The position numbers were made by a program, and so were the translations under genes. A stretch of DNA of 64,000 bases from Botryllus schlosseri (Eukaryota). Below the pieces are notes generated by a model that was given only the letters and a program-made list of their open reading frames with translations, did not search any database and had not been told where the DNA came from. Shown here piece by piece: positions 17,061 to 63,099 of the stretch; positions within the stretch are counted from its first letter, which is position 1; every line of letters begins with the position of its first letter. The stretch lies in assembly GCA_051294905.1 (NCBI GenBank), contig CM119372.1, positions 38,194,001-38,258,000 of the forward strand, in the 5' to 3' direction.

Positions 17061-20000
17061 TGTTACTCTGGGAAACGATAGACCCCCAAGTGAAAATGTA
17101 TTGTTACTCCGAGTAAACGATAAATCTCCAAAGGACAATGGTATTTTTACTCAGGTAACGGTTAACCTCCAGGTGAAAATGGAAATTTTACTTGGGTAGG
17201 TATCGTATGTTTAGTGTCGTTGGTATTGTTAAACGTTGTCGCCGGTAGCCGTTGGTATACTATTACGAATGTGAAAAGGATTTGCACGCCCTGTGCTGAG
17301 TATCGCGATAGTGAACATATTTTTCGCGTGACGAAACAAGATCGCTGTTTAAATGTTAATGCGTGCATTTCGACCACTCAGTTGCTGAACACGATAGAAG
17401 AGCCTACAGTGAGACCATTCTGTATGCTTCGATTAAAACCGCAACGGAGACCACTTATGAATCGACTCGAAGTATTTCAACCCTCGTTGTATTTAGTCAA
17501 TTCGAACCAATTTTGATAAAAGTCTCTCAGTATGACTCACACACTAACACCGTACACAGAAGTCGAAGATTGTGATATGGATTATTGAAAATATCTCTCA
17601 ACTACATGTACAACTAAATGGGGGTTTTGATGTTGTAGAAAGTAAACAATTTTATTGAGTTGTGTGTTTGATGAAAGTGATTGGTTACAAGTATGTGTTG
17701 AGGAATGAAAATTTATTTTCTGTACGCGACAGTTTGTGTCAAAATGAAAATAGATTCGTGGTTACAATTGAATCGTGGTTGTGCTGTTCAAATGTACGGT
17801 TCAACACGAAGACTTGACGCTCAACAACAACTCGACAAAACATATCCATTGCACGATTTATCACTGGTGTGCTAAGGGTTAGGAACATTTTTATTACGGA
17901 TCCATCTACCAGTGGTTTTGTTGTGACGGCAATCATGTGATGACTCCGCACTTTTCGTTTGCAAAGTTGGTTGTTTTGTGTGTAAGATTTAGGGACGGTG
18001 ACTAGAAAACATATGTACTCTACTCTGTTGTTGGAGTAACTGGTTTATTGCTATGACATTGCCAGAACCCTCGAGTAGTGACTATGCTTATCTTCTACGA
18101 AAGTTTACGTGACCCGGTGTAATAGATGTGTGTTGACTAAACTAGGATAGATACCGTGGTTGTGCAGGACTCACGCATGGTATTCACATATTGTACATAG
18201 GGCTATACAAACTTTTGTGTAAACAACTCTGATATTTCTTTAAGTAATAGTAGTGTATCGAGCTATGTGAATAATAAGCTACGTTGGATCATTCATGTCA
18301 AAACAGTTTGTAAAGTCTGACTAAGCATTCTTTACTTTGAAAGCGTAGGTAATCATTCTTCAGTTTCGTAGTACCAAAAAATATCGAGTAAGGTCGAGTA
18401 CTTTGTGTGATGTAAATATCTTTCATACTTTTGTACGAGTCGAGGGGATTATCAGTCGTATCATACAAGTAACTATAGTTGACACAAACAAAATGCGCGT
18501 GTATCGTTTTCAAAAGTCAAGAAAGTGAAAATAGTTTTCTGTTACGCTAAAACGTTTGCTATACTAGCATATTTTGTATTCGACAAAACGATGCACGCCG
18601 TTGAAACGATATTGGTCAAAATCCATAATGCGACGAGTCAGTAAAATACACGTTAAGTTCGCTGTGATCTGATTTATTCTTGTGTCACGCAAAAAGCAAC
18701 AATGTACAGTGTGTGTAATTTTGTTGAAATGATTATGAAATAAATAGTAATGACCTGTGTCGGTTGTTACCGTCGATGCATTAGCTTTAATCAAGTAAGT
18801 GATATTCACAAATATGTGTGTCGTTTTGACAACTCAAAGATTTTAGGTCTTGTGACCAGAAAAACGACCCTATAGTTGTGCACGCGTAGAAAATGACTAG
18901 GAGTTCAATCTCAACTAGGAATCGTGTTAGCGGTTGCGTGTTTTTCTTTGATGGTGTGCGTTCTACAAATAATTCCTGTTTACCAATCTAGGATGTATTG
19001 AGCAAACATTCTGCAATATGCTTTTGATGACTTCCTGTGGTTTGGTTTTATGATTACAATTTTAGAAGATTCAAATGATAATTTATGATCACTACTATAA
19101 ACATTGAACATCAATGCAACCACATTTTGTAGTATTCGGAAGCATATGTTTCGATTTTATTAGTGTTAAGAGTTTTCTGTATTACTCAAGCCTAGTTGAA
19201 TAGGAGGTGTCTAGCAAACATATTCCAGTTTGTTTTTGTAATGATCAAAGTGTGTGAGAAATGGTGCGAACGGATTAAGCATTAATCAAGCGGCGGTATG
19301 CCAATTCACACATCTTGACACCGGGGTAATGCGGGTATGTGTTTCAGTTCTTCGTCGCAGATTCCGACAATGAAGTATTGTGCCGGTTTTTAATCAGCAA
19401 ACGAAATTGTTGTTTCATCTTTAGTCTTGGTTACTGGAAACAATTACGTTTGTAAAATATTTTCTGATATCCGCGATACGCAGAGTAATTTGTACCAAGG
19501 TGGAATAATTTTCCAATCAAGAACATTTCAGACACGCATAGTTTTACAACTCAATATGTTAATAACAATGGTACTGAAAAGTTTGTTGCTGTCATAATAA
19601 CCTTTACCACAGCATCGGGTTTAATTACCGTGGATAATTTAATAATCAAGTCTTGATCAACTATTACATATGTCAAATCACTGTGTCAATCCTTGTTTAC
19701 ATCATGATAATTTTCAATATAACGCCTGCGTTTGATCGTGAGAAATAAATTCTTAACTACGTTGGTCAGACTTTCAAATGTCGTATATTCTCAACATATG
19801 CCAATCTCAAGTTGCGTGCACCGAGTAGTAATTACTTTATGTTACACGGTATACCGAGTAGTAATTACTTTCACAGTTGAACAAAAAAGACGAGTTGGCG
19901 GTATATGACTACAACCGAACTTGCTATGGATTTTAGATTGTAGCGATTGTATGTACTTGCGTAATCTTGAGTACTTTCCATACGGATACTGTTGAGTTGA

Positions 20001-21809
20001 TTGGGTGAGTTACAATCGGATTTACGTGACAAGGTTTTTCCTTGTTGACTCTTTGGAGTATGGTAAGATGTTAAAATGTCGAGACGTAATACTATTTCCG
20101 TTAACTCAATTGCAACAAAAAAAAATAACCAGACAGCTTGTTCAAGGTTTCGACAAATAGATTGAAATATTCCGATTTAACTCATCGCGTCGCAACTAGA
20201 TCGTGGTATGCACAAGTGGTTGTCAAGTTCGAAATATTTACAACAGGCGGTATTTCATTGACTGACTCGGTTGTGTGTAGTAACACATTAAAATATCGCG
20301 ATAGTAATTACTGAAACTCTATTTGACAAACGGAAAACTCAGTCGTGAATAGAGTTGTAAGGTTTCATTACTTGTTTCAAATCTAATTCTAAATATGACT
20401 GGATTGAAAGTTGGTAGTCATGTTTGTCAATTTATTTCAATTCAGACTATGTCAAAGTCCAAATATTTCATTTTGGATTATCTGAATTTACCTTTAGTAC
20501 ATCCCGCGAATGGATTCCGACACCGCACTAGAACATTTTTGATATGGACTCAAGGATTTTCAATCAACAATGCCTGAATTTTTTTGGTAATGCTAGAGTT
20601 GGCAAATGATTAGTTGCGTGTTTTTGTTAAGCTTTTGATTTCTCAGTATTAAATACAATTATTGTATACTTGTTATTCCTGATTCTCATTGAGCTAGTTG
20701 GTATTGATGCTATAGGTGTGAAAACAGCGGTGCGGAATGTGTGAATAATCCGATGCGGGCGAATGTTGGCGTCAGTAATATTCAGGTTACGTTCGATTCA
20801 ACAGATCGCGTTAATAGGATTTGTCAAAGGATTTGAGTTGGGTCGAATCAATACATTCAAATACGATTCAACTTGATTTGTGTAGTGAGTTTCATTTCAA
20901 GTTGACAAACTAACGCATTGCTTGAATATTTTCATGGATCTTATCACGCAACTAAAGTCAGCCACTATTCCGGAGGCGTGAAACATATAGCGATCGCGGG
21001 CAAGTGACAAATTGTTGGTTTTCGAATCACCGTCTGCGACGGTTCTGTGACAAACTAATTACCGAAATATTACCTTGTGAGCGGGCATGAGGAATTGCTA
21101 TGTCTGAAGCATTATCCGGTGAGTGGTCGTTGGATTTTAAAATTATATCACACCCTTTTGAATAAGCGTTCACTTCACGAAGGATTAGGGTTAGAGCGGA
21201 AATAAGTGACAATTTGTCGCTATTCAAGTTACCGACACTGGCGGTCTGTTATTCGTTACTTATTAAATCTTACGAGTGAAATCAAGTTCTGTGCCAAACT
21301 GCTTACGAAAATTTCACCGCGTTAGTGATCGATATGCCTGTAACACCAAGTCGCTAAAGATGGTTATGTCCGAGACATAACTATTTCACACCTATTTGAA
21401 GTGTTAATTTGTGACCGTTGTTATTGTTGATATTCGAATCGCCGTCTACGCCGGCTCTGTGGTAAACTAATTACCCAAACATTATCATGCGAGTAATTCC
21501 TAGATTTTGCAAACTATTTTCACGCCTTTTTTGTTGAGAGTACGACATTCCACCTGCAGTCTATAACCGAAAGTACGAATCACCGCCGCGTCCGTAAGAA
21601 TAACGATATATTAAAGTCGCACTCAACGTTTTAAAGTCGCACTCACCGTAAACGTTGGGATAAACCCGAATCCGTCATACATAATAATTTTGAATATACA
21701 CATTAACTAAGGATCAATCACGTGATCAATATACTTCGTAATCAACATCACCTCATGACCGTGCAGCCTATACCAACAACATTAGTTCACTACGACACAA
21801 GAATCTGCG

Positions 21810-22140
21810 GGCACATCATCGCCACAGCATATATCTGAAAGGGTACCATCATCACCACATCGGCACATCATCACCACAGCCTATATCTGAAAGGGTACCA
21901 TCATCACCGCATCCATAAGAACACATAGCACCTCACCACCACAAGGGGGGTCAAAAAGGGTACCATCGCCACCACGAGTTTTCAGGCGCCTCACCGCCGC
22001 AACCTATACCCGAAAGGGTACCATCATCACCGCATCCATAAGAACACATGGCACCTCACCGCCGAGAGGGGGTCTAAAAGGGTGCCATCACCACCACGAG
22101 TTTTCAGGCCCCTCACCACCGCACCCATGAGAACCCCATG
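21810..22140 (-). repeat. Subterminal ~123-bp GC-rich repeats at the right end of element 1
   Basis: Reverse complement of the 123-bp unit at 23170-23600 (GGTACCATC.CCACCACGAGTTTTCAGG). Confidence 0.85.
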
Positions 22141-23169
22141 CAAAAATCACCAATGTGCCAGCGATCGTATATACTACTCACTATCTTTCGATCATGGCCA
22201 ATTATATTAAATTTCAGCGCTCTTGTCGCCAGATCTAGCACTGCAAATTATGCTACTTTGAGATTACTCAGCAAGAAGATACTGTTTGCCCATGCGTAAC
22301 CGCCTGGAGTTGCGTATCTACTATCTATCCGTAGCTTAGTAATCTATAATTATATATCATCGGAGGCCGCACTCTGGTGACCGGTATAGCCAATGCAGTC
22401 GTCGGCCAGAATGATATATATTGGTTGTTTTCGGTGAAAAATCGCTAAATAATCGGTAAATACTTTTTCAAGAATCGCTAGATTTAGCGCTAGGCGCTAG
22501 ATCCATATTTTTTGGCGCCAAACCGGATGAAAAATCGCTAGATCTAGCGCGAAAATCGCTAAATTGGCAACACTGGCCCGGTGCATCCTATCTCGAATGA
22601 TTTTAAGTCGTGACGCAGTGGCGCCAGTAAGTCAATGTCTCTGCAATCACGAATCGCAAAGTCACTTGATTTTAAAAGCACAAAATCCGCAACTAATGGT
22701 TTCAAATTGTAACATGTACCCTCAATGTAAATGTAACTTTCCATAATATTGCAATACGCCATGATTTCGCGGACCCTTTGAGCAAACCAAATAGCACTCT
22801 GGGTGTTGCAGTTTTACATACTCCAAAGATTCTAAACATTTCCTTACGGTAGAAAATGCAGTGTAATATCGAACCAAGAGCTACGTTAACAGCTTACCGT
22901 AGGGCTGATGTCGTTAACAATAACACAGGATCGTCACCGCAACATCTAATAAACAAATTGATCTTAAATATGCATATCACGTCGTGCCGTTTGTATATAC
23001 GAGGACAAAGCCACCAGAATTCAACCGGAAACTCCGTCGGAGGCCCTGTATATAGTATAGCATAGTTCGACAGTCAGTGACCGACTGTTGGCCTGCAAGA
23101 AATTGAAGTACTATTCACTTATCGTTAGTAGTATAGTAGATCGCACAACCGGTGGCAGGGGCTCTTATG

Positions 23170-23620
23170 GGCGCGGCAGTGATGTGCCTGAAAACCCGGG
23201 GTGGTGATGGTACCCTTTTTGACCCCCCTTGTGGTGGTGATGTGCCATGTGTTCTTATGGATGCGGTGATGATGGTACCCTTTCTGGTATAGGCTGCGGT
23301 GATGATGTGCCTGAAAACCCGGGGTGGTGATGGTACCCTTTTAGACCCCCCTTGTGGTGGTGATGTGCCATGCGTTCTTATGGGTGCGGTGATGATGGTA
23401 CCCTTTCAGATATAGGCTGCGGTGATGATGTGCCTGAAAACCCGGGGTGGTGATGGTACCCTTTTTGACCCCCCTTGCGGTGGTGATGTGCCATGTGTTC
23501 TTATGGATGCGGTGATGATGGTACCCTTTCTGGTATAGGCTGCGGTGATGATGTGCCTGAAAACCCGGGGTGGTGATGGTACCCTTTCAGACCCCCATGT
23601 GGTGATGATGTGCCTATGTG
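23170..23620 (+). repeat. 123-bp tandem repeat (~3.5 copies)
   Basis: CCTGAAAACCCGGGG recurs at 23187, 23310, 23433 and 23556. Confidence 0.93.
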
Positions 23621-23769
23621 GTGATGATGGTACACTTTCAGATATATGCTGTGGCGATGATGTGCCCACGGATTCTTGTGTCGTAGTGAACTAACGTTGT
23701 GGATATAGGCCGCGGCGATGATGTGCCTGTCATGTATTCTTACGGGATCTGTGGTGACTCGCCATGTGT

Positions 23770-24085
23770 TCTTATGGGTGCGGTGGCGAGCGGCTATTGC
23801 GTCTTATGGCGGGGGTGGCGAGCGGCTCTTATTTCTTATGGCGGGGGTGGCGAGCGGCTCTTATTTCTTACGACGGAGGTGGCAAGCGGCTCTTATGGGT
23901 GCGGTGGTGAGGTGCCTGAAAACTCGTGGTGGCGAGCGGCTCTTATGTCTTATGGGCGCGGTGGCGAGCGGCTATTGCGTCTTATGGCGGGGGTGGTGAG
24001 CGGCTCTTATGTCTTATGGGCGCGGTGGCGAGCGGCTATTGCGTCTTATGGCGGGGGTCGCAAGCGGCTCTTATGTCTTGTGGTG
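23770..24085 (+). repeat. 32-bp G-rich minisatellite
   Basis: CTTATGGCGGGGGTGGCGAGCGGCTCTTATTT-type units. Confidence 0.9.
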
Positions 24086-27000
24086 GCACGGTAAACCTTT
24101 TCAGTATAGTAATCGGTCGCATGCTAACGTTGTGGGTATAGGCTGCGGCGGGGACTCGTATTGAAAACTCTTGGTCGTGATTCACCCTTTCGGGTATAGG
24201 CTGCGGTGGTGACTCGTATGGAAAACTCGTGGTCGTGATTCGCCTTTTTTGCTATAGGCGGTGGCGGTGATTCGCCTGTCGTGTATTCTTACGGGATCTG
24301 TGGTGACTCGCCATGTGTTCTTATGGGTGCGGTCGTGATTCGCACTTTCAGGCATTTCTCGCGTGGTGTTGAATATGTACGAGTCACCAACAATAACCGC
24401 GCAGACGGAAACGCGGCCTGTTTGCAAGAGGATTACGCAGCGGGTGCGACCTATATTTCGAATGACCTGCGCGCTGAATTGTTTCCCATACAGCTGTGTG
24501 CTACTATCGATTATTACACTAATCCAGTCAGTGCGAAATAGTTTGCTAAATCTAGGAATCACTTCCAAGGTAATATTTTGGTAATTAGTTTACCGCAGAG
24601 CCGTCGTAGACGGCGATTCGAATATCAACGCGATCGCTCACAAGATAATACCTAAGACATAACCATCGCTCGCGACTCGCTGTTACACACATGCCGATCG
24701 TTGACAATGTAATATTTTGGTAATTAGTTTGTCACAGAGCCGGCGCAGACGGTGATTCGAATATCAACAATAGCCGCGTTCACAAACCAACACTTCAAAA
24801 ACGTGTAAAATAGGTTACAAATCCCACGATCGTTCACAAGATAACACCAAAGACATAGCCATTTCTCGCGTCTTGTCATTACATACATCCCAATCGCTAC
24901 AGTGTAATATGTCGATGGTTGTTACTATCAAGTAATAAGTAATGAATAACAGTACCAGCGCAGACCGTGATTCGAAAACCAACAATTTGACACTTGCACG
25001 CGATCGCTATATGTTTTGACACTTCGGAACAGTCGTTGACTTTGCGTGATACAAATCATGAAAATTTTAATCAGTGTGTCAATTTGTCAACTTGAAATGA
25101 AACTTACTACACAGCTCAAGTTGATTCGTATCTGAATGTGTTAATTCGGTACAATTCTAATTATTTTGAGTTATCTTTTTAACGCGATCTTTTGATTCGG
25201 CCGTAACCTGAATATTACTGACGCCAACATTCAGCCGCGTCGGATTATTCACACATTCCGCGCCGTCGTTTTCACAGCTATAAAATCAATACCAACTATA
25301 ACTCTACAAGAATCAAGAATCACAAGTATGTGCATTATACAGTTATTGTCTTTATCAACATGAAATCAAACGCTTAACAAAAACACACAACTCATCATTT
25401 GCCAACTCCAGCATCACCAAAAAATTCAGGTATTGTGGATTGAAAATCCTTGAGTCTTTATTATCAAAAATGTTATAGTGCGGTGTCGGAATCCATTCGC
25501 AGGATGTACTAAAGGTAAATTCAGATAATCCAAAATGAAATATCTCGACTTTGACATAGTCTGAATTGAAATAGGATTGACATACATGACTACTACCATC
25601 TTTCCAAGTGCCATTTCGAAATTATACGCACATTGATTTGAAACATGTAATGAAACATTACAACTCTATTCGCGATCTGGCTTTCCGTTTGCCAAAGAGA
25701 CATTTTACCATACTCAAAAGAATTATTCGCAACATTAACCGGTGTTACAAATCTAGTTTTCACTTACTTGATCATATCACTACAACTCACAAACTTGAAT
25801 TAATTCATCTGGCTGTATTCATATGACCGATAATTTTTATTCAACTGTAAAGGTCGTTGCTATTCTGTAAGACAAAGTATTTACTAATCGGTACATATAC
25901 GACTTGGCATAAACCTATTACATTTTGAGTATACGAGATTTGAATGTCTGAACAATAACTGAGAATTAAATTATCACAAGTGAATCCGTATATTACAGCG
26001 TAAAAGATATTGGAATGTCAGCAACTCTGTACGGTCATAGTTACTACCACATTACCTAATTTACCCGGCCAACTCGTCATGATCATCCCTGAAATCAACA
26101 CAACATGACCACTGACTTGAGTTAACCCAAAACATCATAAAGTTTTAAATCCATTTGTAGCTTACGTATTATTTGAATGCGTGTTATGTTTTATTGCAAT
26201 CGAGTTAACGGAAATAGTATTAAGGCTCGACATTTTAACGTTTTACCATACTCAGTCAATCAGGAAAACCTTGTCAAGTAAATCCGTTTGTAACTTACCC
26301 GACCAACTCAAACAGTATCAGTATGAAAAACAGCCAAGCATACACGAGTCCATACAATCACTAAATCCTAAAATCCATAACAAGTTCGGATTTACTCATA
26401 TCCCTACGACGCATCTTTTTTATTCAACTTTACAAGTCGTTTCTATTCTGTAAGATAGAGGAATTACTACGCGGTATATTCTACAAGACAAAGTAATTAT
26501 TACTCGATATATTTTGTAAGACAAAAGTAATTACCACTCGGTGCAGGTGACTTGAGATTAACATAATATGTTTGAGTATACGAGATTTGAAAGTCTGATC
26601 AACGTATAGTTGCGACTTCATTTCTTACAATCGAACGCTGGTGTTATATCTAACGTTACCATTCTGTAAACATAAGGATTGATACATTGATGCGCCATAT
26701 GTAATAGTTGATCATGACTTGATTATTAAATTATTCGTGTTAATTAGACCCGGTGTTGTGGTAAAGGTTATTATGACAACAACAATCTTTTCAGTACCGT
26801 TGTTATTAACATATCGAGTTGTAAAACTATGCGTGTCTGAAATGTTCATGTTTGAAAAATTATTCCACCTTGGTACATATCACTCTGCGTATCGCGGATA
26901 TCAGAAAATATTTTACAAAAGTAATTGTTTCCAGTAACCAAGACTAAATATGAAACAACAATTTCGTTTGCTGATTAACAGCCGTGCAATACTTTATTGT

Positions 27001-28824
27001 CAGAATCTTTGACAGTGAATTGAAACATACTCACCTTACACAGTACGAGTAAATCACTTTGGACTTGGGCGCGACCTTTAATCTGTGTTAAACTCTGTTC
27101 ACACTCTCCGTCGAATGCGTGAAATGTAAAACATTACGAGGTTACACTATAAGACTTTGATCAGCAGAGAAGCAATTTTGAATATCTTCACTGGTGCACC
27201 TTATTCTACTACACTTGGGTAATATACAAAAACTCATAGCAGTATGAAAATCGCAATAGGTGCTACACTGAAATTTACAAAATGTGTTTGTATTGTTGCT
27301 CAAAGTAGTGATCATGAATTATCATTTGAATCTTCTAAAGTAATTGTAATCGTAAAACCAAACTTGCGAAAGTCATTACCATAACAAAAGAATATTGTAG
27401 GTTGCTTGCTAAATGTATGCCGGAAATATTTGTAGAACGCTCACGACCAAAGAAATCGGAAATTGTCATTCATCAAAGTAAATGTCGTCACAATACTCTG
27501 CCACTAAAAGACCATACTTGTATGTGATTGAATCCCTAACAATTAACTATTTTTCAAACGAGTAAAATTTATTACTTGAGTTTCGCCGCTTACTATATGT
27601 ATATGTAAACTCAACCGTCTTTTAACATCACAAAGACATTGATAAAAAGTAGGCAATCAAACGCTACAAGTTTAACTTTTGTAGGTTGTGTATGATTACC
27701 CCACGCAACTCATTTCTTACCAAAGGTATATGAAATATATTCATGTTACACGAAAATACTCGATATTCCCAGAAACATCCGAGTTGTTTACACAAAAGTT
27801 TGTATGTGTACAGTATGCGAATACCATGTGTAAGTCCAGCACAATTGCAGTATCTATCCGAGTTTAGTTAACACAATTTACGACACCGAGGTCGCGTCAT
27901 TTTTCGTAAGAAAAACCAACCAACCAATCCTGTAGGATATGTCAATGTCATAGCAATAAATCAGCAACTACAACAACAGAGTACATATGTTTTCTAGTTA
28001 CGGTGCTTACATCTTACACACAAATCAATCTACTTTGCTAACGAAAAGTGCGGAGTCATCACATGGTTGTCCTCACAACAATACAACTAAAACATACTAT
28101 CATACGAAATGGTCGTTATAGTTTGCACACCAACGGTACATCATGCAAGTAACAAGTCTCGAGAATCCAGTTATTGAAAAAACGTGAAAGTGTTTCTCCT
28201 GCGCCAAGTCGTTATGTTGACGAAAGCGTATATTGTAATATCATGATCGATTTGCATTCGTTGGTCACAAAATGTCACTACTCTAAATAATTATTTTACA
28301 CTCAAACACAAAAGCATACTAGTCACCATTCGTTTTCATCAAGCACGAGTTCAAGAAACTTACTACGACATGAATTCTTATTTTTATTTTGTGTAAATAG
28401 TTAATAATTAATTTTAGTAACACTATATCAACATCATCGAGTTGTGTGAATAGATTTACATGCGGTCTTGTGGTTTTAATCGAAGTACACAGCACGGTCT
28501 AATGTAGAGCCATCTTTATTGTACAGCAACTCGGTAATCGAAATGCATTAACATTTAAACAACGATCTTGGTTCGTCACGCGAAAAATATCTTTACTGTC
28601 CCGACACTCTGATACTCTGCACAAGATGTGTAAATCATTTTCATGCTCGTAATATTACGCTAACGAGATACCGACGTCGAGCGAAAACGTTTAACAACAT
28701 CAATGACACTGAACATACGATACCTACCCGAGTAAAAATATCATTTCCGTTTGGACAACTGACGTTTACCTGTGTAATATTACCATTTTCCTTTGGAGAT
28801 CTGACGTTTACCTAGAGTAAGACA

Positions 28825-29280
28825 CTATTTTCACTTGGAAATATATTTTTCCCTCAGCAACAAACCATTTTCACTTGGAAATATATTTTTTCCCTGAGCA
28901 ACAAACCATTTTCATTTGGCGGTCCGTCGTTTACCTGAGTAAAAACATCACTTTCCTTTGGAGATCCATCGTTTACCCAGAGTAACAATACATTTTCACT
29001 TTGGGTTCTATCCTTTCCTAGAGTAACAAAACCATTTTCGTTTGGAAATAAATTTTTTCCCTGGGTAACAAACCCTTTTCACTTGGAAATATATTTTTTC
29101 CTAGGGTAACAAAACCATTTTCGTTTATAAATAAATTTTTTCACTTTCGTTTATAAATATATTTTTTCACTGAGTAACAAACCCCTTTCGTTTAGAAATA
29201 TATTTTTTCTCTGAGCAACGATACCGTTTCACTTGGAAATCTATTTTTTCCCTGAGTAACAATACCATTTTCGTTTAGAA
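28825..29280 (+). repeat. Degenerate 41-bp array in the element 2 loop
   Basis: Repeats of TTTTCACTTGGAAATATATTTTTTCCCTGAG(C/T)AACAAACCA. Confidence 0.85.
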
Positions 29281-32200
29281 ATCAGACAACCAATCCCGAC
29301 AATTTGATATTTTTGTATATTGTTTACAGTGGATAGTGGCAAAATATACACCAACAACGACCCCGATACATTTGTGTAATCACATATTCACTTGTTATGG
29401 TGCATCCCATCAAATTCGACGGTTAGTCACACACACACACACACAATAACAATGCGCAATTTCGATATGACTGCGATGTCCGGGTTCGTGCTTTAGATTT
29501 TCCAGAATCAATCCGTCTAAAGTTGTAATCCCCTCGACTTTGTTAACTGATTGATACACGGATAACAATCCGTGGAAAATGTAGGAACGCATGCTACCCA
29601 TCGAGCTAACGATTCTAGGTTACTTGTGATTAATTTTCTTGCTCACACTATACAGATTATAGGTACAGGGATATGTAGCGGTAATCGATTTGGTCAATGC
29701 ATATCGCCCCATTCAGTATGGAATTACAGACCCAATACAGGTCAGTTCCGGATATTCAACGCAAAGCGATAAAGCAGAACCAATGACCAAATGTAGATTC
29801 ATAACCCTTGATTTTTTCGTTAAAAATGACAATACATATCGAATATACTTTACGATTGTTCAACCCTACCAAGTATCCGCGTAAATGTAGTGGATGACAT
29901 TACATACAATGGGTCGGTGTACAAATGTTGGGTGTTTATGCACACATCGGTATGACCCATAGACAACATCATCATACCCTCCAGGACTTCGTTATTGCAT
30001 CGCGAGGTCAATAAAATCGATTTTGTGTACTCAATCGGTGGCATAGACGACGGAAGGCTTGGAGATCCAATGTAAAATACAGACAAACAAACGGGTATAT
30101 TTGTCCATCTTGGTTATTCACTCAACTACCATTGGTGCTCTCGATACAGCGAACGGTACAGTATGTAACGCATATCATTAGAGTGATATAACCACAGGTG
30201 CGTGGGGTAATCATACACAACCTACAAAAGTTAAACTTGTAGCGTTTGATTGCCTACTTTTTATCAATGTCTTTGTGATGTTAAAAGACGGTTGAGTTTA
30301 CATATACATATAGTAAGCGGCGAAACTCAAGTAATAAATTTTACTCGTTTGAAAAATAGTTAATTGTTAGGGATTCAATCACATACAAGTATGGTCTTTT
30401 AGTGGCAGAGTATTGTGACGACATTTACTTTGATGAATGACAATTTCCGATTTCTTTGGTCGTGAGCGTTCTACAAATATTTCCGGCATACATTTAGCAA
30501 GCAACCTACAATATTCTTTTGTTATGGTAATGACTTTCGCAAGTTTGGTTTTACGATTACAATTACTTTAGAAGATTCAAATGATAATTCATGATCACTA
30601 CTTTGAGCAACAATGCAAACACATTTTGTAAATTTCAGTGTAGCACCTATTGCGATTTTCATACTGCTATGAGTTTTTGTATATTACCAAAGTGTAGTAG
30701 AATAAGGTGCACCAGTGAAGATATTCAAAATTGCTTCTCTGCTGATCAAAGTCTTATAGTGTAACCTCGTAATGTTTTACATTTCACGCATTCGACAGAG
30801 AGTGTGAACAGAGTTTAACACGGATTAAAGGTCGCGCCCAAGTCCAAAGTGATTTACTCGTACTGTGTAAGGTGAGTATGTTTCAATTCACTGTCAAAGA
30901 TTCTGACAATAAAGTATTGCACGGCTGTTAATCAGCAAACGAAATTGTTGTTTCATATTTAGTCTTGGTTACTGGAAACAATTACATTTGTAAAATATTT
31001 TCTGATATCCGCGATACGCAGAGTGATATGTACCAAGGTGGAATAATTTTTCAATCATGAACATTTCAGACACGCATAGTTTTACAACTCGATATGTTAA
31101 TAACAACGGTACTGAAAAGATTGTTGTTGTCATAATAACCTTTACCACAACACCGGGTCTAATTAACACGAATAATTTAATAATCAAGCCATGATCAACT
31201 ATTACATATGGCGCATCAATGTATCAATCCTTATGTTTACAGAATGGTAACGTTAGATATAACACCAGCGTTCGATTGTAAGAAATGAAGTCGCAACTAT
31301 ACGTTGATCAGACTTTCAAATCTCGTATACTCAAACATATTATGTTAATCTCAAGTCACCTGCACCGAGTGGTAATTACTTTTGTCTTACAAAATATATC
31401 GAGTAATAATTACTTTGTCTTGTAGAATATACCGCGTAGTAATTCCTCTATCTTACAGAATAGAAACGACTTGTAAAGTTGAATAAAAAAGATGCGTCGT
31501 AGGGATATGAGTAAATCCGAACTTGTTATGGATTTTAGGATTTAGTGATTGTATGGACTCGTGTATGCTTGGCTGTTTTTCATACTGATACTGTTTGAGT
31601 TGGTCGGGTAAGTTACAAACGGATTTACTTGACAAGGTTTTCCTGATTGACTGAGTATGGTAAAATGTTAAAATGTCGAGCCTTAATACTATTTCCGTTA
31701 ACTCGATTGCAATAAAACATAACCCGCATTCAAATAATACGTAAGCTACAAGTGGATTTAAAACTTTATAATGTTTTGGGTTAACTCAAGTCAGTGGTCA
31801 TGTTGTGTTGATTTCAGGGATGATCATGACGAGTTGGCCGGGTAAATTAGGTAATGTGGTAGTAACTATGACCGTACAGAGTTGCTGACATTCCAATATC
31901 TTTTACGCTGTAATATACGGATTCACTTGTGATAATTTAATTCTCAGTTATTGTTCAGACATTCAAATCTCGTATACTCAAAATGTAATAGGTTTATGCC
32001 AAGTCGTATATGTACCGATTAGTAAATACTTTGTCTTACAGAATAGCAACGACCTTTACAGTTGAATAAAAATTATCGGTCATATGAATACAGCCAGATG
32101 AATTAATTCAAGTTTGTGAGTTGTAGTGATATGATCAAGTAAGTGAAAACTAGATTTGTAACACCGGTTAATGTTGCGAATAATTCTTTTGAGTATGGTA

Positions 32201-34342
32201 AAATGTCTCTTTGGCAAACGGAAAGTCAGATCGCGAATAGAGTTGTAATGTTTCATTACATGTTTCAAATCAATGTGCGTATAATTTCGAAATGGCACTT
32301 GGAAAGATGTTAGTAGTCATGTATGTCAATCAGACATGGGGTAATCGCGATCAGTAATCGTAATCGATTACGACGATTACAGCATTTTGAAGTAATCGTA
32401 ATTGCAATCGATTACATTCGAAAAAAATCCGAAGTAATCGTAATCGTAATCGACTATTTCCCATATCTAATCGATTTGTTTGTGAAAGAACGATTACTTT
32501 CTGTTTGTACAAGGACTATGACATAAACTGAATATTCGTGAACAAGAATGAGATAATATACTACGTTAGCGTTAGCACAAACGTCTGTTTTCAAACGCCA
32601 CTGACTCATTATTACGTCAGAAGTATTAGCTCCGCTCGTCATTGCGTAACAAGTATCCACACATAGTAAACAGACATGCGATGGGCATTGTAGTGTGATT
32701 GTAAGAACACCTCCCGTGGTGTATATCAGGTTATCAATACACTACAGAAGCCGCTACCTCGCAGCAGGATATTGATCGCCACTCTGCCTATAGTTTCGAA
32801 TAGTAACTTATGTATTAATGTTTGGTTGTGCTTAGTTAAACGCAGTTTACCATTGCTGCTTGGCGAGCAGGAGGCCTACGTACGCACGTGCACCTGACGA
32901 AGATTCGGAATTTTGTACTCGTCGAATAAGACATTGCAGTTTCCACAACGAAGCATTACAAATAAACAGCTGCTGATATATATCATAACCGAGCCGTGCT
33001 TAGCCGTTTCTCGTAACAGCAGCTCACTGTATATGTATTAAGTTGAAGGCAGAATTTTTATGTTAACCATATCTTATTCTCATATAACTACTTGAAACGG
33101 GCGTCAATCGTTATTTCACAGTTCGTTACTTAGCATTTGGACCTGCCGCCATAACCATCCGCTTATATAGCCTGACATGTTAGCGTGGGTTGTAGCTAGA
33201 ATCAGCAATTGAGCCAAAACAGCAATTCCCCAGTCCAACCGTTGGTCAATTTTCAAAAGTGAATTTCGTCAATAATATTGGTAATTGCATTATATTACTA
33301 TTCATTTATAACCTCTCTGAGCCCCGAGTGTCAGATTTACCTGTAAAGCTGGGGCACGTAATTCATATTCATAGCATCTGGTATGTTGTTATAATTACTG
33401 CATGTTGTTAATTCGCGACCTCCAGTCCGTTGTATAATCACAAGATATTGTACTCGCCCAAACGTAGCAGACTAAAAGAATATCTTTTGTGAGAAGCACA
33501 CACAAATTGTCATGGCTTTATTCTTTTGTGGATGCGCCGGGTGACATTTGCATTGTGGGCCCAGATTGGAAGCAGCACCGTAACTGCCGCACCCCAAACC
33601 CCCCAATTGGGGGGGGCCCGAGCTCGAAGGGGGCCCAAAATTATTTCGTGAATTAGCATAAATTAAAGAGTATTTTTTTAAAATTTATGCAACTTTTTCA
33701 AATTTTTTTCGCGCTGCGCGCGATGTCAACCTGCCAAACATCTTCAATATTTGTACTCTTCCTCCAAGAAAAAACACGCAAGATTTATAGAAATAGACAT
33801 ATCGGCGTTGGTCATTACAGCGCCACGACGCACCAAGACATATAACGATTTAGGACATATTACATGCGACTCCAAGAAGTGTGCCAGAACGATCGGCAGC
33901 GCGAAAACTTTGGCCGAAAAGGACTGCCCTTACGCTGTCCGAAAACTTCGTTATATATACAAAATACATATAGGTTTAATTGTCAATAGGCGCCTAAATG
34001 ACTGGCGCCAAATGTTCCTGTCTTGGCAATCTGAACCTCAGAAGACAAATACCATCCCGCAGGGAAGAATTATATGCCAGTGAAGAAATACCAATTTGAA
34101 ATCGTCTGCGTCTTTTAGTTTAGTACGTTTGGGCTATTCTATATTTTTTGATATAGCAGACAGGAGGTCACGTCACATCATGTAACGAAGTCATACCAAC
34201 GGGTCCGCCCGCCCGAAGATGTTTAATTATTATTTACGGGCGCTACAGTTTCCGGTAAATCTGATAACGTGAGCAGAGAGGACAAGAAATTGATAGCAAT
34301 ATATATGCAATTCCCGATCTTATTGGCCGCTTTTATCATGAA

Positions 34343-34861
34343 CAGGGCTGGGCACAATGATTCGAGTACTCGAATCAGAATCGAGTATTAATTTTAATGA
34401 TTCGAGTCGAGTAGTAAAGGACGATTTTTTTGAGTACTGAAATTGTACTCTTCTCGCCACTGAATGTTAATTTATCAACGAGAATTATAGTTTCGATACC
34501 AATTTTCACTGTAGAAGCCTTGGAACCTTGATTGGCTGTATCGTAGCATACGAAACATATGGTACAAAGCTACGAAGGTTACTGGATGTAGCACATTTCC
34601 GAAGTCATGATTATCCCACAACATCATCACCAAGTGAAATGAAGTCGGTATGGTCGAAAAAAAATACCAAAGTATCATTTATGAGACGGATAACAGGCAT
34701 TAAATTATTTGTGGTGACATAAGAGTTAGATATTTGAACTTTGACGTATTATATTAAGTCATGGCGTCATAATGGGTGATACTAGATTACTGGACTCGAC
34801 TCGAAGCATATTACGTGATTCAAAATCGAATCACTCCGGTACTCGATTTTGCCCAGTCCTA
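34343..34861. mobile_element. Nested hAT MITE
   Basis: TIR CAGGGCTGGGCA / TGCCCAGTCCTA; TSD ATCATGAA; TCGAGT subterminal motifs. Confidence 0.85.
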
Positions 34862-35552
34862 ATCATGAATTATCGAAAATTTTCGCGCTTGGCGCTGGCT
34901 CACTAGACAGTACGACTAATTTCGTGACAAAAGCGAACAATGTGATGGGGGAGGGGGCGGGTTATCACCCTATCGGAGCCAAAGACCCAATTTTTTTGAG
35001 CGGGCTGACGAAGTGCTGTTTCATTCCTACCAACGGGTGTACGCCCGATAATATTGACCGGTTCAATCATGAATTATATAAATTTTTCGCGCTTCGCGCG
35101 TCCAGGCGGGAATATCTGACTCCCTAAACGGACAGCCAACGTAGATGACAAGTAGCGGCAAAGATCGGATTGCCAGAGGGGGGTCTGGGGGGCGAAGCCC
35201 CCCAGAAGTTCGGTTTATCACCGTATGGGGGGCCCTAGACCAACGTTTTGGGGGGGGGCCTGACGAAGTGCTGTTACGGCCCTGATTGGAAGGACAGGAG
35301 TTATTAGTCCCGCCCACTCAGCGCGGCTATTGACAATGGACGAATACCCTAAGTTTCGGCCAGGGTATTTCTTTGGTATCACATCCCGTGGAGTTGCGTG
35401 TTGGCCGAAACTGCATATGCGTTTTGGTGTGTTGTGGGATCGTGGCGCGGTAATGACCGGCTGCGAAATGCCTGTTCCCATAAAATATAGCCTATGTATG
35501 TTTTTTCTTGAGGGGAAGAGGTATGCATTTCAAACCCAGCTATGTACTGGAG

Positions 35553-37646
35553 CAGGGGTCACCAACTGTTTTGAAACAAAAAGCTACTTCTTGTGTAGTG
35601 TGTACTGATTATTGTGACGACCGACGGGTTACCTCGTACTCCCGTCGTTTATCCATGTTCAGTTGGATTTCTTCACTTAGAGCAGTGGTTCCCAACGTGG
35701 GCGATATCGCCCCCCAGGGGGCGATTTGACGGTTTAGGGGGGGCGAAAACGGACGAAGGGGGCTATAGGGGGGCGAAAACGGACGAAGGGGGCGATAGGG
35801 GGCGAAAACAACGAAGGGAGCGATAGGGGTGATGGTGCTTTAAAACGGCTATATTGGAGTCGGGACCGTAACTATTGCATCCCGAACCCCCAATTGGGGT
35901 GGGGAGCCCGAAATCGAAGGAAGCCCAAAATTATTTGGTGAATTAACATGAATGATAGAGTAATTTTTTAGAAATTCATGCGACTTTCTCAGAAATTTTT
36001 AGCGCTGCGCGCGATTTAATATTTTCATTTATTTTGATGCTGGGGGCCCCGTCACATAACAAAAATACGTATGATTTAAAATGGGAGACTTCGGCGTCGG
36101 TCATTGCTGCGCCGCGACGCACCAAGACGTATGAAGTTAGAGGCCATGTAACATGCGACTCCGAGAAGTGTGCCAGAACGATCAGAAGCGAGAAGACCTT
36201 GGCCGAAAAGGAATGCCATTGTGCTGACCGAAAACTTCGATATATATACAATACACATATGTTTAATTGTCCATAGGCGCCTCAATGGCTGGCGTCGATT
36301 GTTCCTGTCCTGGCGACCTTAACGCTACAGGACAAATGCCATCCCGCAAGGAAAAAATTACTTGCCAGTAAAGAAATACCAATATGAAATCCTGTGCGTC
36401 GTTTAGTTTGGTACGTTTTGACGGTTTGCATATCTTCTGACATAGCAGATATAGGAGGTCATGAAATAGCATCATGTAAAGAAGTCAATATAACAATGAT
36501 TCCGCCCGAAGATGTTTAATTATTATTTAGGGGCCCTACCTTTTCCAACATACCACATCCACCATATTTACCGATTCAAACATGAATTATATAAATTTGT
36601 CGCGCTTCACGCGTTTTGGCGAAATACGGTGACTCACCAAACAGTACAGGGAATAGGGTATAGCTGATATGTAGCGACAAAAAGCCCACTGGCTGAGGGG
36701 GGTCAGGGGTCTGGGGCCAAATACCAACGTTTCTTTTTTGGGGGGGGGGCTGACGAAGTGCTGTTTTTCGGTTCCCAATATTTGGGGGGCGATGATCGGT
36801 GCGGAGCTTCAAAAGGGGGCGATGAGTCGAAAAAGGTTGGGAACCACTGACTGAGAGTAAGACAATCAGAGCACTGGGCCGGGTTTCCGCCCCTTACCAA
36901 GAAAAAAAACGCTCACTCGAAGGGACTCACACCAGCTCCTCCAAGCTCAGTTGCGTTGCTGCAGTGCGCGCAGAAGCGCCGATCTCCGCGTCTAGACTCT
37001 GGAATATTAACTATATAGATTCCCGTTGAGCCGCCGCGTGGGCGAAGGCAAGCAATGCCCCGAGCGACTGCGTTCGTATGTTCCTTGGCGTCGGCCGACC
37101 CATGTTCAACTGCTGCTCATATGAAACGAGCTTCAACTACCAAATCTCTCATTTGGACATTTGCTACAGCGCAGTGGTGGCCATACGAACGGAGGGGGGG
37201 GGGGCTGGACGAGACTTACCGGGGGCCCCCTATAAGTATCTATCCGTAACTTATGGGGGGCTTCGCCCCCCAGACCCCTCTTTCGCATCTGTTATTATTA
37301 TCTATCTATCAAGGTTCGGCCAGGTGCTGGATTCGGCCATGTCTATTTTTTCATGTGTGCACAGATACACGACATTAAAACTAAGTAATTCTACCGCATG
37401 CAGAGACGTGATGATTATCGGGATATGGTACTTTTCGACCAAAATGCAGAGATTTCATGATGATTGACACATCTGTACGGAATCCTATTCTTGCCTTACA
37501 CGGATTTCCATGTTTATTCGTTATTATCCTTGAAAAAGCGCATAATCCAAATAGGGGAGCCCTTCGGCCAGCCCCCCTGGCGACCGCCCACCTCGCCCAC
37601 CGCAAAAGCCGCGGGCGACTCATTTGGTCCGCGTTGGTGACCCCTG
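35553..37646. mobile_element. Nested hAT (Charlie-like) element
   Basis: TIR CAGGGGTCACCAAC / GTTGGTGACCCCTG; degenerate TSD. Confidence 0.7.
35683..36849. mobile_element. hAT MITE nested inside 35553-37646
   Basis: TIR CAGTGGTTCCCAAC / GTTGGGAACCACTG; TSD ACTTAGAG / ACTGAGAG (7/8); GGGGGCGA repeats; related to 60546-60863. Confidence 0.85.
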
Positions 37647-38776
37647 TTCTAGATATATTTGAATCGCAAAGCTCGAAAAACATTTACAGGAATTAATTAA
37701 ATTCTCGAAAATGCTCTATAATATATGTTTGTTTACAAAATAGTTTTGGGTCCCCTTCAAGCACGCTCCCCACTCTATTAAGGAATTTGGGGCGCGGCAG
37801 GTAAAGACCTGGCAATAATGCAAATCGTTGGATGCGATAAATCATCCACTATAAAGTTGGGCAATCGATATATTATGCCGTAATAAGCAAATGACGCATG
37901 ATGAAGAAAGTTGATATCTCATTAAGCCTTTTCATCGCAATCCTTGTATTTTCTTCCCATATATCATTTAAGATTATAGTCCTAAGCAAAACAAATGTAA
38001 TCGTGAGTAATCGTGATTACTTTTTCAATGTAATCGTAATCGTAATCGACTACTTCCTGAATTTGCTGTAATCGTAATCGTAATCGTAATCGCGTGATTC
38101 CGAAGTAATCGTAATCGCAATCGATTACATTCATAAAGTAATCACCCCATGTCTGATGTCAATCCTATTTCAATTCAGACTATGTCAAAGTCGAGATATT
38201 TCATTTTGGATTATCTGAATTTACCTTTAGTACATCCTGCGAATGGATTCCGACACCGCACTATAACATTTTTGATAATAAGGACTCAAGGATTTTCAAT
38301 CCACAATACCTGAATTTTTTGGTGATGCTAGAGTTGGCAAATGATGAGTTGTGTGTTTTTGTTAAGCGTTTGATTTCATGTTGATAAAGACAATAACTGT
38401 ATAATGCACATACTTGTGATTCTTGATTCTTGTAGAGTTATAGTTGGTATTGATTCTATAGCTGTGAAAACGACGGCGCGGAATGTGTGAATAATCCGAC
38501 GCGGCTGAATGTTGGCGTCAGTAATATTCAGGTTACGGCCGAATCAAAAGATCGCGTTAAAAAGATTACTCAAAATAATTAGAATTGTACCGAATTAACA
38601 CATTCAGATACGAATCAACTTGAGCTGTGTAGTAAGTTTCATTTCAAGTTGACAAATTGACACACTGATTAAAATTTTCATGATTTGTATCACGCAAAGT
38701 CAACGACTGTTCCGAAGTGTCAAAACATATAGCGATCGCGTGCAAGTGTCAAATTGTTGGTTTTCGAATCACGGTC

Positions 38777-40758
38777 CAGGCATCTGTGACAGACCTGTAA
38801 GTGTTTGGAGGTATCGAGCGTGCTTGTTTGAAAGGAGGCACAACATGGTGTGTTTCTCGAGAGCAGAAGCGGTTCAGCGATTGGAAGTCAACAACTCTCC
38901 TCGGGCTGCCATCTGCCTTGCGGACCCATATGGCCCTATGACACCAGGTCGTTGGCGTGTTCGGCTCCACTTTTTCAATCACCCCTAATTTTACGTCCGC
39001 CTCCAACTGCTTCTCAATTTCCTCTTTCCAATGAAGTGGAATGGGGGCCGGTGTGTGGACTGCAGTCGGTGTCGCTGACGGATCGATATGAATGGAAATA
39101 GGCGGCCCAGTCATGGTTGGTAGTGGGCTGTGTTTGCACTTGTTGAATGTGGATGATGCATACCTCTCAATTAACCACTGCTTCATTTTATCAACATTCT
39201 CCGCACAAGGCTGGAATGGCAGCTGCTGGGGGCGTGGAGGAGGCGTGGACCTCCGTGGGCAGCTACATGTTTGATGCGGGTTACCCTCAAGGGTTGACTC
39301 TCGTGTCGCGTGGAGTGCCGCTGCCCCAATTTGAGGAAAATCAGGCCCAGTGATGCCCAACTTCTGCATGGCATCTCGACTAAGGTAGAAGAGTTTCGTA
39401 GAATCCGTAATGTATACCATCTCAGCGGTTTCTATGACATCGCCAGACACTGCTGCACCCGAAAGTCGCAGAAACACAGCGCCCAAGATGTGGATACACT
39501 CATCATTAGCTGCAACCATGCGTTTCTTCACCGGGATGAGATGCTGGTCTTGGAAGCCGCATGCTCGAAACAGTTTCAATCCCATCAAGGATGATTGTGC
39601 ACCAGTGTCCGATATCGCCTTTATCTTCTTGGGCGATATTTTGGGACGCTGGATATTGAACTGAGCATAATCGGCTTGCCGGGTGGAGACCAAAAGATCA
39701 ATGGTCGGTTGTGCCTTGCAGTCTTTCAGCAACCAGCCGTATGTGCCATCGAATATGTGGTGGTCCAATATGACTTCCGAAGCATGAGACTCGACAGTGT
39801 TATTGGTACGGTTCGATACTGAAGCGATATCGATACCAGAAGCAGTGCCAGTACTAGGAGACGGCGTCTCCGATTGTTTGCTTTTTCGCCAGCAGGCTAG
39901 ACATTGTTTAAACTCGCGCGACCTCGGCTTACCAAACTTCCCATGCAAGAATTTATACTTCTTCATGACACTGCCACATTTGCTACATTTGACGACTTGG
40001 GAGAGATCGGGCGAAGGCGTGCCAGTTGACTTGCTGGCTGCGACACTAGAGTCATGCTGATTTCTCAACTGGGAGGAGGTGGCACGGAGCGCCAGTTCCT
40101 TGTTTTCAATAATCTGGACGGTTTCGTCTAGCGATTTTGCATCGATATTCGCAACACCAAGGACTTGCCGCCGAATCTCATCATCAGCCAGGCCAGCGAT
40201 GACAATATGCTTAACAATTCTATCAGAAAAGTCGTTGACTTGGGTGCAGTCATGCTTGGTACAAGTCATTTGGAATGAGCAAATTCTTGCAGACGATTTA
40301 ACTGCGGCCAGAAATGCACTAAAGGATTGCCCTTGATCCTGCTGGGCCGAAAATAGAGCAACGGTGCGCATGCTTGTGGCGATTTTGACAACTGCTAGAG
40401 ATTCGATAGCTTTCAGCATATCACCTTCACTGACCTGATTGAAGTCACCGACTTGTTTGAAGAGGTCGTTCGATAAAGTTATCTCACAGCATTGCCAAAG
40501 GTGGCTCTTGATTAGATCGTCGGGCATCTCGGTCCCTTTTTTAAAATCGTCCCATTTTCTGAGGAAGATTTGCCATTCCTCGGCAGTGGAGCCACGCGAA
40601 ATGACGGGTCGTTCCATGGCAGGGGGTCTCGAACGCGAGACAGGACGACCTGCTGTGTGGATTAGACCGTGGATCGCTAGCTGTGCGGCGGCGCCGGCCA
40701 CGTCTTCGGTTTCTGTCTCATACTCGCAGTCTTGGATTGGGCAAGAAAGCTTCGGCAT
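38777..40758 (-). pseudogene. Ty3/Gypsy LTR retrotransposon gag-pol, 3'-truncated within RT
   Basis: Gag (EEWQIFLRKWDDF), aspartic protease (AISDTGAQSSL) and RT N-terminus (WCHRAIWVRKADGSPRRVVDFQSLN...DAW). The ORF is cut before the YxDD motif; the last residues TVIRKPTI derive from the element 2 arm. Confidence 0.9.
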
Positions 40759-42525: not shown

Positions 42526-45118
42526 CAGTGATGAGCATCGGAGCGGAGTCGGAGTGTATCCGGAGCGGAGTTTTGCCAATTTTGTGATACTCGGAGTGGA
42601 CCCGGAGTTTACTACAGATATTTTTCTGGAGTTTACCGGAGTGTTGTAAGTTTTGCCCCCGGTATCTTTCGATAGCTCTGACCAGAAGACACTATTGATT
42701 ACAAACCAAAACACAGACAGTTGACACGTCTTGTAAAGTTGTAATATGACGGGTAACATGCAAAAATGATTGCCCAGTGCATAGCAATCAGCCATCTGCA
42801 CTGTAATTGGGGACTGGAGAGTAACATAGTGATCTAGCAAGGCATTTTCGTTGAGCAGTGTCTGTAGTTCACAAAATTAAAGGCGCCCAATATCATCCGC
42901 AGTGCATCATTTGCTCCCTGCCTTGAGATGCAGTCTTTGAATCCACAGCTGAATGTCACCATATCATGAGATAAGATCTCCAGAATCTTCAATGTTGCTG
43001 TCATTGCAGTCTTCTATAGTCACATTCCTCCTTGCGTATTTGTTTCGTGACTGATTTTCATGCTACCCGATTAATTGTGCGAAACATTTACAATCAGCAA
43101 CATACAACGGGGCTTCGGCTTCCCAATGGTACATTCTTTAGCTACCCTGATTCTTCCAGCAAGTTCATGATCATAACGGAATATATCCCATTATCCTGAT
43201 GACATTCAACGTAGTAATAGGTCCATTTTGTGAAAATGTATTCGCAACGTTGGTATCAGTTGAAACGAGATAATATGCGATACCACTTTTGTGAGAACTT
43301 TTCGCAACTTTCATCGTACTTTGCTACTTTACTACTCTGCAGTGAGAGATATCGATAATAAGTGTTACATCAATATTATATAGAAATATACGTACAACAA
43401 GCAAGTTTCTGGATTGAAACAATAATAACTTATACAATGTGTCATAATGATTGAATGACGTTGCGACGAATTTTCGCTAGTAAGATCCGCTTACAGGGGC
43501 ATACCAGCATCTAAGCCCGCTTCAAATATTTCAACAATACATAAATCACTAAGGTAAGCTGATCTTACCCAGTAAAAACAAAATATTCCGAATTTCTGAA
43601 CAGCCACACTAAATAACTACAACTGTCTGCTTTGCTCTGCTCGCAACTAGCATCAACTACGCTTCCTTCAATATTGACAGACGTAACCAGTCATCCAGAA
43701 CTCTTCTGAATTTGCGTCATGTAATGTTTGTTTTTATTGAGAAATGACTTTGATGTGATAAGAAAAATCAGCACCGCAAACAAGTTTCTGCTGCTGGTCT
43801 GTCTCAAACTCCAAATTCCAGATATCATGTAGCAGCTTTAAAATTGGAAGTCATAGTCATTTAGTCAACTCCAAGGAGCGGTGATCGGTGCGTCAGTGAT
43901 GCATCAAGTCTGTTTAGTGCAGCTCCATCAACTGTTTCATGGCGATGCGGAACTTAATTTACTGAAACCTGTGATGTGATCGTCGATGTAAGTGGTAGTT
44001 AGTTCGGACTGACTGGTTTTCCTCCGTCGTGGTCAAGTGGGTTACCCACAAAGAGGCAGAAAAAGAGTGACGTGTGGAAGGATTTCACTCTGATGCATGA
44101 TAATAATGGCCAGTATACTGGGTTTGCGAGATATCAAAATTGCAATGTTTACAAAAGTTGACAAGTGGTACGTCGCATCTTCGAAGACATGTCGAAGCGT
44201 GTAAGAAGAATGGATCGCAGTTGAAGATAAGTTCCTTTCTTTCTTCCAACAAAAAAGTAAGCGAGAAATCAAAGGAGAAGTGGCGTGGTGTTGTCTCCTT
44301 TGTATCCCATGATATCAGACCACTGAGCTCTGTTGAGGGGAAGGACCTCAAGCAGATGGCTGATGCCTTGATCGAAATTGGGGCAATGCATGGCAAAGTG
44401 AGTGCAGACGACGTTTTGCCATTCAGATTTACAGTGAAACCTAAGTTGGATGAGGAGGCTTCATCTTTGAAGCAGAAGCTGTCAGAGGAACTAAGAGTTG
44501 CTATCATTGGGATTCTTCGATTCTTCTTCTGGGTTTGCGAGATATCAAAATTGCAATGTTTACAAAAGTTGACAAGTGGTACGTCGCATCTTTGAAGACA
44601 TGTAGAAGCGTGTAAGAAGAATGGATCGCAGTTGAAGATAAGTTCCTTTCTTTCTTCCAACAAAAAAGTAAGCGAGAAATCAAAGGAGAAGTGGCGTGGT
44701 GTTGTCTCCTTTGTTTCCCATGATATCAGACCACTGAGCTCTGTTGAGGAGAAGGACCTCAAGCAGATGGCTGATGCCTTGATCGAAATTGGGGCAATGC
44801 ATGACAAAGTGAGTGCAGACGACGTTTTGCCATCCAGATTTACGGTGAAACCTAAGTTGGATGAGGAGGCTTCATCTTTGAAGCAGAAGCTGTCAGATGA
44901 ACTAAGAGTTGCTATCAAGAGTTGCTATCATTGGGATTCTTCGACAAGGTTTTGAATAGCTACCTCTACCGTTATGGATGTTTCGGAGACTGGACAAGAT
45001 TCTTCGGGTTATCTCGGAGTCTGGGATTGAGCTGCCCGGAGTCGGAGGGACTTTGCCTCACAGACCAAAGTTGTCGGAGGGACTCGGAGTCTGGAAAAGC
45101 AGACTCCGCTCATCACTG
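42526..45118 (+). mobile_element. Internally deleted hAT transposon
   Basis: TIR CAGTGATGAGC / GCTCATCACTG; perfect TSD GCAGGCAT; CGGAGT subterminal repeats; contains a transposase fragment. Confidence 0.92.
44040..44930 (+). pseudogene. hAT (Hermes/hobo-like) transposase N-terminal fragment, tandemly duplicated (411-bp period)
   Basis: KSDVWKDF and TSGTSHLRRH (BED finger remnant); DIRPLSSVEG...LIEIGAMHG...DVLP (Hermes-type DNA-binding domain). Copies start at 44119 and 44530; the second has a stop codon. Confidence 0.85.
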
Positions 45119-62993: not shown

Positions 62994-63099
62994 CAAAGCA
63001 GGCGGGCATGCCGTATTTGAGTGAATACCAGTCAAGCCTAAGAACTGTAATATCTCTGAAGTCCATGGACCACGTCAAGTATACATATTGAAATCATAC

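Follow-up and report, generated by a model that had tools for sequence, protein, structure and literature searches.

The stretch of Botryllus schlosseri DNA analysed here (assembly GCA_051294905.1, contig CM119372.1, positions 38,194,001 to 38,258,000; 64 kb, hereafter the window) is repeat-rich eukaryotic DNA of 40% GC, and at 23127-38776 it carries a palindromic mobile element, the focal element of this study. The element has near-identical arms that evolve in concert, ends on its left side in a Maverick-type terminus, belongs to an abundant family and holds no recognisable gene. The evidence moderately favours the view that it is a high-copy, gene-less palindrome of about 14 kb, built as a whole around an inherited centre, mobilised in trans by a Maverick and later damaged on its right arm. 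A neighbouring member of the same family, element 1 (9859-22178, with a 199-bp spacer at 15675-15873 and its axis at 15774), serves as the comparison throughout.

Results

The left arm (24963-27707, plus strand, 2745 bp) was aligned with the reverse complement of the right arm, which consists of an inner part (30199-32330, minus strand) and an outer part (38164-38776, minus strand) separated by an insert. Over the 2745 columns there are 17 substitutions and no insertions or deletions (99.4% identity), 13 of the substitutions falling in the inner part and 4 in the outer, and a hand count from the alignment gives 11 transitions and 6 transversions. The resulting arm divergence is 0.62%, with a 95% interval of 0.36-0.99%. 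The arms proposed in an initial annotation of the window are real, and the start given there, 23127, is the left terminus of the element. When both arms of element 1 were used for polarisation, 10 of the 17 differences could be resolved, with the derived letter on the left arm in 6 cases and on the right in 4. Derived changes on both arms, the lack of insertions and deletions and an insert present on one side only argue against a chimeric read, as the initial annotation had already contended from the one-sided, duplication-flanked insert, and the structure looks genomic on this indirect evidence. Between 25172 and 25596 five arm differences in a row have their derived letter on the left arm, by chance or as a conversion tract.

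Outside the left arm the element continues for a further 1836 bp (23127-24962) that have no mirror copy in the right half, and a search for this part in 38777-64000 found no trace of it. Behind the terminus it is composed of GC-rich tandem modules with 123-bp, 32/64-bp and 58-bp units (23136-24962, plus strand), so that long inverted arms together with tandem sub-repeats, a feature of the Foldback type, are present in the focal element. The terminus itself, AGTAGTATA at 23127-23135 on the plus strand, corresponds to the (AGT)2 end motif of Mavericks. In a count over the whole window this sequence was found three times, at 9859 (plus), 23127 (plus) and 22178 (minus), and each occurrence is the outer end of a family half; the chance expectation is 0.53 per window, and one of 100 shuffles reached three. 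The (AGT)2//(ACT)2 end motif is accordingly present at 23127 and at both ends of element 1, and the right end of the focal copy is missing.

No coding capacity was recognised. Six-frame Pfam scanning of 23127-30202 found none of the Maverick core genes (protein-primed polymerase, integrase, ATPase, protease, capsids), with one chance-level match at E 0.058; across the left half and the insert, 12 frames in all, the scans yielded two matches, both at chance level. The focal element contains no open reading frame of at least 150 amino acids, and no signal of codon periodicity survives correction over 169 windows (best p 0.003). With none of the core genes found, the focal element is not an autonomous Maverick/Polinton.

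The loop between the arms (27708-30198, plus strand, 2491 bp) is collinear with element 1. Its positions 27771-29932 align with 18239-15988 of element 1 at 64.9% over 2348 columns, and it includes a 41/42-bp array (28725-29282) and about half of a homologue of the spacer of element 1. The last 140 bp of the loop match the 199-bp spacer in the reverse orientation only: the score was reached by 2 of 3000 dinucleotide shuffles, compared with 1222 of 3000 in the forward orientation, and the match is the best of 2532 window tiles. Through this alignment the axis of element 1 at 15774 maps to 30180 in the focal element, 18 bp from the junction at 30198/30199 (junction 1), so that axis and junction lie together within 30180-30199 and two neighbours that are 65-85% alike share their axis to within about 20 bp. 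The different breakpoint and loop had been taken in the initial annotation as the mark of an independent fold-back. This is not borne out, given the collinearity of the loop with the inner half of element 1 into its spacer, in a single orientation, and the proximity of axis and junction. Judged by these alignments the loop is what the inner half of a family member normally looks like and not unrelated DNA. Most likely the two elements share one inherited centre, from which the focal copy would have lost 2.4 kb on one side, and we regard the shared centre as moderately well demonstrated by the sequence comparison. If the axis of the focal element is the mapped axis of element 1, its intact length would have been about 14.1 kb.

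Further evidence on the arms came from sibling contigs in public sequencing runs, 21 of 24 of which hold part of the focal stretch; the contigs of four runs, with small-share runs left aside, were compared with 27715-39300, and the results below refer to the joints, differences and pieces that were listed (15 of 3173, 40 of 1285 and 32 of about 259,000, respectively). Abundance of the family is very high, with 346,198 records in run X1 and a summed depth of 35,000-394,000 in bins of the element, compared with 2,900 in the bin of the adjacent Gypsy-like sequence, depth not being copy number. Among the 40 listed differences, 17 lie in the right arm. In 15 of the 17 cases the left arm agrees with the right arm against the commoner contig letter (51-100% of X1 depth), and in 9 of those 15 the contig letter is found in both arms of element 1. 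Rare letters that the two arms have in common include those at 30897, 30925 and 30304. The arms of the focal element were therefore re-copied, one from the other, after their lineage had split off. The initial annotation had suggested a recurrent mechanism behind the two neighbouring palindromes, and in the copying of arms such recurrence is indeed seen.

The siblings also bear on junction 1. Contig 27 of run X5, whose organism label differs from that of run X1, has 523 letters at a depth of 144.5 and fits 29732-30199, after which come 29 letters without a fit. As this contig overlaps contig 26 by 30 letters, the unfitted letters lie beyond 30199, and siblings therefore depart from the focal copy precisely at junction 1. 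Contig 10 of run X16 has its midpoint at 30178, where it would be expected if the contig crossed the loop of a palindrome symmetrically, a post hoc and weak observation among five listed loop contigs. None of the 32 listed pieces bridges 30198/30199, which is evidence in neither direction. At the spacer boundary the inverted homology at junction 1 amounts to one shared letter and two more behind a mismatch.

The insert in the right arm (32331-38155, 5825 bp) is non-coding and composite, with smaller elements nested inside it. It is flanked by an 8-bp target duplication, ATGTCAAT, at 32323-32330 and 38156-38163, and ends in 12-bp perfect terminal inverted repeats. It is absent from the left arm, where the site is empty, and sibling contigs skip it through joints from 32295 and 32299 to 38157. 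Transposons of the hAT type leave an 8-bp target duplication and end in short terminal inverted repeats. The hAT assignment made in the initial annotation holds as far as the duplication and the inverted ends go, which together carry the label, and not as regards a transposase, since a six-frame Pfam scan of the insert for one gave only a chance-level match (E 0.021). The insert is best described as hAT-like and probably non-autonomous. The order of events proposed earlier, insertion after inversion, is supported in that the insert arrived after one arm had last been copied onto its partner. Contigs also skip nested parts of the insert (34325-34861 and 35678-36854), a 700-bp segment is repeated within it at 77% (33565-34253 and 35853-36546), and short forms joining both of its ends are common (joint 32387 to 38103).

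The right arm stops at 38776/38777 (junction 2), where it abuts a Gypsy-like gag-protease-reverse transcriptase frame (38777-40758, minus strand). This frame lies outside the palindrome, marks its lost right end and is cut at junction 2, early in the reverse transcriptase as judged from its motifs. It comprises 660 codons; its Atlas look-alikes carry RVT_1 and an aspartic protease (score 0.91), and there are weak Pfam protease matches, while the whole frame has no Pfam family at E 0.001 and no PDB match; its label comes from the look-alikes, the weak protease matches and the motifs. Two contigs of the Gypsy-like element continue unlike the window from 38775, and a search of the rest of the window did not find the missing part. 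Against its sibling contigs the Gypsy part has 2 differences in 421 letters in one case and 2 in 526 in the other. The sequences joined at the junctions share 1 nt at junction 1 and 2 nt at junction 2.

Element 1 is itself heterogeneous. Its arms are a mosaic, with an identity of 70-98% by 250-bp bin (98% at 10611-10860, 70-83% in mid-arm and 96% near the centre), and the innermost 875 bp are 96% identical. Its two ends bear different terminal repeat modules, both of which are found in the focal element, and its flanks (TACTGC and CACTAT) show no 6-bp target duplication and no 8-bp match. The mosaic arms, the unlike end modules and the lack of a target duplication suggest that element 1 is probably a recombinant of several copies. 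Only 948 bp (22179-23126) separate it from the focal element, a gap between two giant elements that suggests local clustering of insertions. Its spacer is not a decayed palindrome (1259 of 2000 shuffles in local and 122 of 2000 in global comparison); an 8-bp perfect palindrome sits on the axis (15771-15778) and two 10-bp palindromes lie within 16 bp, the spacer overall not being palindromic. A 122-codon open frame runs across the spacer (15671-16036, minus strand), and its end corresponds to the second half of a C3HC4-type RING finger in a weak match (PF13920, E 0.004, below the curated cut-off). The public proteins P0002 and P0003 partly track this frame, and P0003 departs from it just inside the spacer edge.

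Sequence-pattern scans for relatives gave no matches in viral contigs (three scans) and none in metagenomes. Four further matches of these scans were dropped as chance, their agreement being confined to the 20-22 letters of the pattern. Elsewhere in the window, two single-frame genes of host type, of the TMEM70/186/223 family and RMI2, lie at 963-1634 and 2787-3332 (plus strand). A 411-bp tandem duplication (97%) is found at 44118-44917 within a fragment bearing a Hermes-type transposase DNA-binding domain (PF10683), and a smaller inverted-repeat element with arms of about 520 bp, 94-96% identical, and a spacer of about 375 bp is found at 61503-62997.

Discussion

The structure of the focal element would be explained if autonomous Maverick/Polinton copies replicate and insert palindromic elements of this family in trans. 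That the enzymes of a Maverick are the mobiliser is, taken by itself, quite likely. A self-complementary template copied in each round would make the arms identical again, and with arm identity reset by copying, the 0.6% divergence would date the insertion as young. Three lesions of the right arm may then have followed. Repair of a break close to the axis, in which about 2.4 kb went missing on one side, would have produced junction 1 and the 2.5-kb loop; the 5.8-kb hAT-like composite would have inserted next; and a deletion would have taken away the outermost 1.8 kb with the right terminus, as well as the 3′ part of the Gypsy-like neighbour, leaving junction 2. Central, symmetry-breaking deletions are the common fate of long palindromes in mouse cells, making up 93% of 118 rearrangements in one study cited in a review (PMC8701086), and inverted repeats that lie far apart are still able to pair when the DNA is single-stranded (PMC10164571).

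Several observations weigh against this account. The spacer match on which the shared centre depends is short, gappy and modest, and under simpler scoring it leads the next tile by only 20.0 to 19.5; the linking stretch 29933-30070 is by itself not significant (262 of 3000 shuffles), and the loop end has no protein-level match to the frame in the centre of element 1. Three separate lesions on one arm are many within a divergence of 0.3% per arm. The palindromes of PMC8701086 have no spacer or short ones, and spacers stabilise, that of the focal family being about 200 bp. No target duplication is available for the focal copy, whose right end is lost, and none was seen for element 1. Finally, the loop is 4.1% (12/290) and 3.4% (16/468) different from two abundant sibling contigs in run X5, compared with 0.6% between the arms, which equally fits an older copy that was re-copied in place.

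The last point leads to the main rival, which is rather unlikely in our estimate and comes closest to the idea of the initial annotation. Here an older copy would have stalled a replication fork or broken at its centre, and the new strand would have folded back to 27707, copied the left arm out to 24963 and rejoined forward inside the Gypsy-like element; the original right half would thus have been replaced and the centre inherited, the present right arm being a fresh fold-back. One such event yields both junctions and the near-identical arms, and it accounts for the 3.4-4.1% by which siblings differ. The differences in the Gypsy part (2/421 and 2/526) are of similar age to the arms, the letters shared at the junctions are as few as it would leave, and fold-back duplications with a single-copy spacer beside a deletion have been described (PMC3907307). 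It is, however, needless if young copies are born with identical arms, and the innermost 875 bp of element 1 are 96% identical; there is no clear inverted microhomology at the loop boundary, and two ordinary deletions give the same junction sequences. The window cannot separate this event from the damaged palindrome that we favour.

Three further alternatives are less likely. In the first, a linear, non-palindromic element would have folded back independently, once in element 1 and once in the focal copy, at a hotspot around 30180-30200. This would agree with the weak RING-finger remnant (E 0.004) in the spacer, which looks as if cut from a longer sequence, and with the departure of P0003 at the spacer edge, a hint of more junctions near the centre. 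We consider this improbable, since both events would have to fall within about 20 bp of the same axis, although a half measures 7 kb, and a longer linear form was not seen. Still less credible is an assembly artefact, whether from a read that is a fold-back chimera or from two haplotypes wrongly joined. The want of a bridging contig among those listed, and a best run with only 62% of the sampled words, would suit it; opposed to it are 17 substitutions without insertions or deletions, the derived changes on both arms (6 left and 4 right at 10 sites), the target-duplicated insert in a single arm and a sibling contig that ceases to fit exactly at the junction. A head-to-head double insertion of two 7-kb elements, although double insertions are a known origin of inverted pairs (PMC5932611), may be set aside almost entirely, as no terminal motif lies at the centre, AGTAGTATA occurring only at three outer ends, and the arms share rare letters.

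For the family as a whole, the damaged palindrome would point to gene-less DNA satellites of Mavericks, about 14 kb long, that replicate as hairpin-like palindromes, keep their axis while subfamilies drift to 65-85% identity and re-copy their arms in each lineage, with arm divergence as an insertion clock; on this broader proposal we are evenly divided. If true, snap-back defective genomes would have a counterpart in integrated DNA, and there would be indirect evidence on the replication mode of Mavericks. To our knowledge Maverick replication has been modelled and not observed. Maverick particles are described as not observed (PMC8097293). A high-copy family with one axis and co-evolving arms would record a self-complementary replication intermediate and offer a dating tool. 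The present locus adds one point to this, namely neighbours that share an axis and a copy that decays by one-sided loss at that axis. A damaged copy cannot show a target duplication or a helper, and so the locus is support for the family-level reading rather than proof of it.

Foldback transposons (Drosophila FB and relatives) have long inverted arms with tandem sub-repeats and a variable loop, are non-coding and rearrangement-prone, and those of the FB/Mutator type make a 9-bp target duplication. The focal element resembles them in its long sub-repeat arms, variable loop, lack of coding capacity and proneness to rearrangement, but it is larger, has a Maverick-type terminus and a centre conserved between subfamilies that are 65-85% alike, and no 9-bp duplication was seen in element 1. 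Such transposons are mentioned in passing in PMC6431247. In vertebrate Mavericks 5′-(AGT)2 is the commonest end motif, and they have inverted repeats of 46-1447 bp, 6-bp target duplications and eight genes (Barreat and Katzourakis 2021, PMC8097293). The focal element shares the (AGT)2 end, and its inferred length of about 14 kb is within the 12.7-24.6 kb range of Mavericks/Polintons (PMC8097293; anole Polintons, PMC3014272); their inverted repeats flank eight genes, however, whereas the focal element is nearly all inverted repeat and has no recognised gene.

Fold-back inverted duplications (Hermetz et al. 2014, PMC3907307) likewise combine an inverted copy, a single-copy loop and an adjacent deletion, and centre-break deletions of palindromes (PMC8701086) show the same asymmetric central loss. 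Those are one-off chromosomal events, in contrast to a structure inside a high-copy mobile element with a neighbour on the same axis. Snap-back or copy-back defective viral genomes (PMC6140465) depend on a helper and, like the focal element, are gene-less and consist of one end and its mirror copy; they are described there for RNA viruses, whereas the focal element is integrated DNA, and that it too would need a helper is suggested by its end motif only. Titles and opening lines of abstracts in the literature outside Repbase and subscription papers gave no account of whole-element palindromic Maverick derivatives. In its way of working the focal element would resemble a Maverick derivative of the non-autonomous kind or a defective genome of the snap-back kind; in appearance it resembles a giant foldback transposon.

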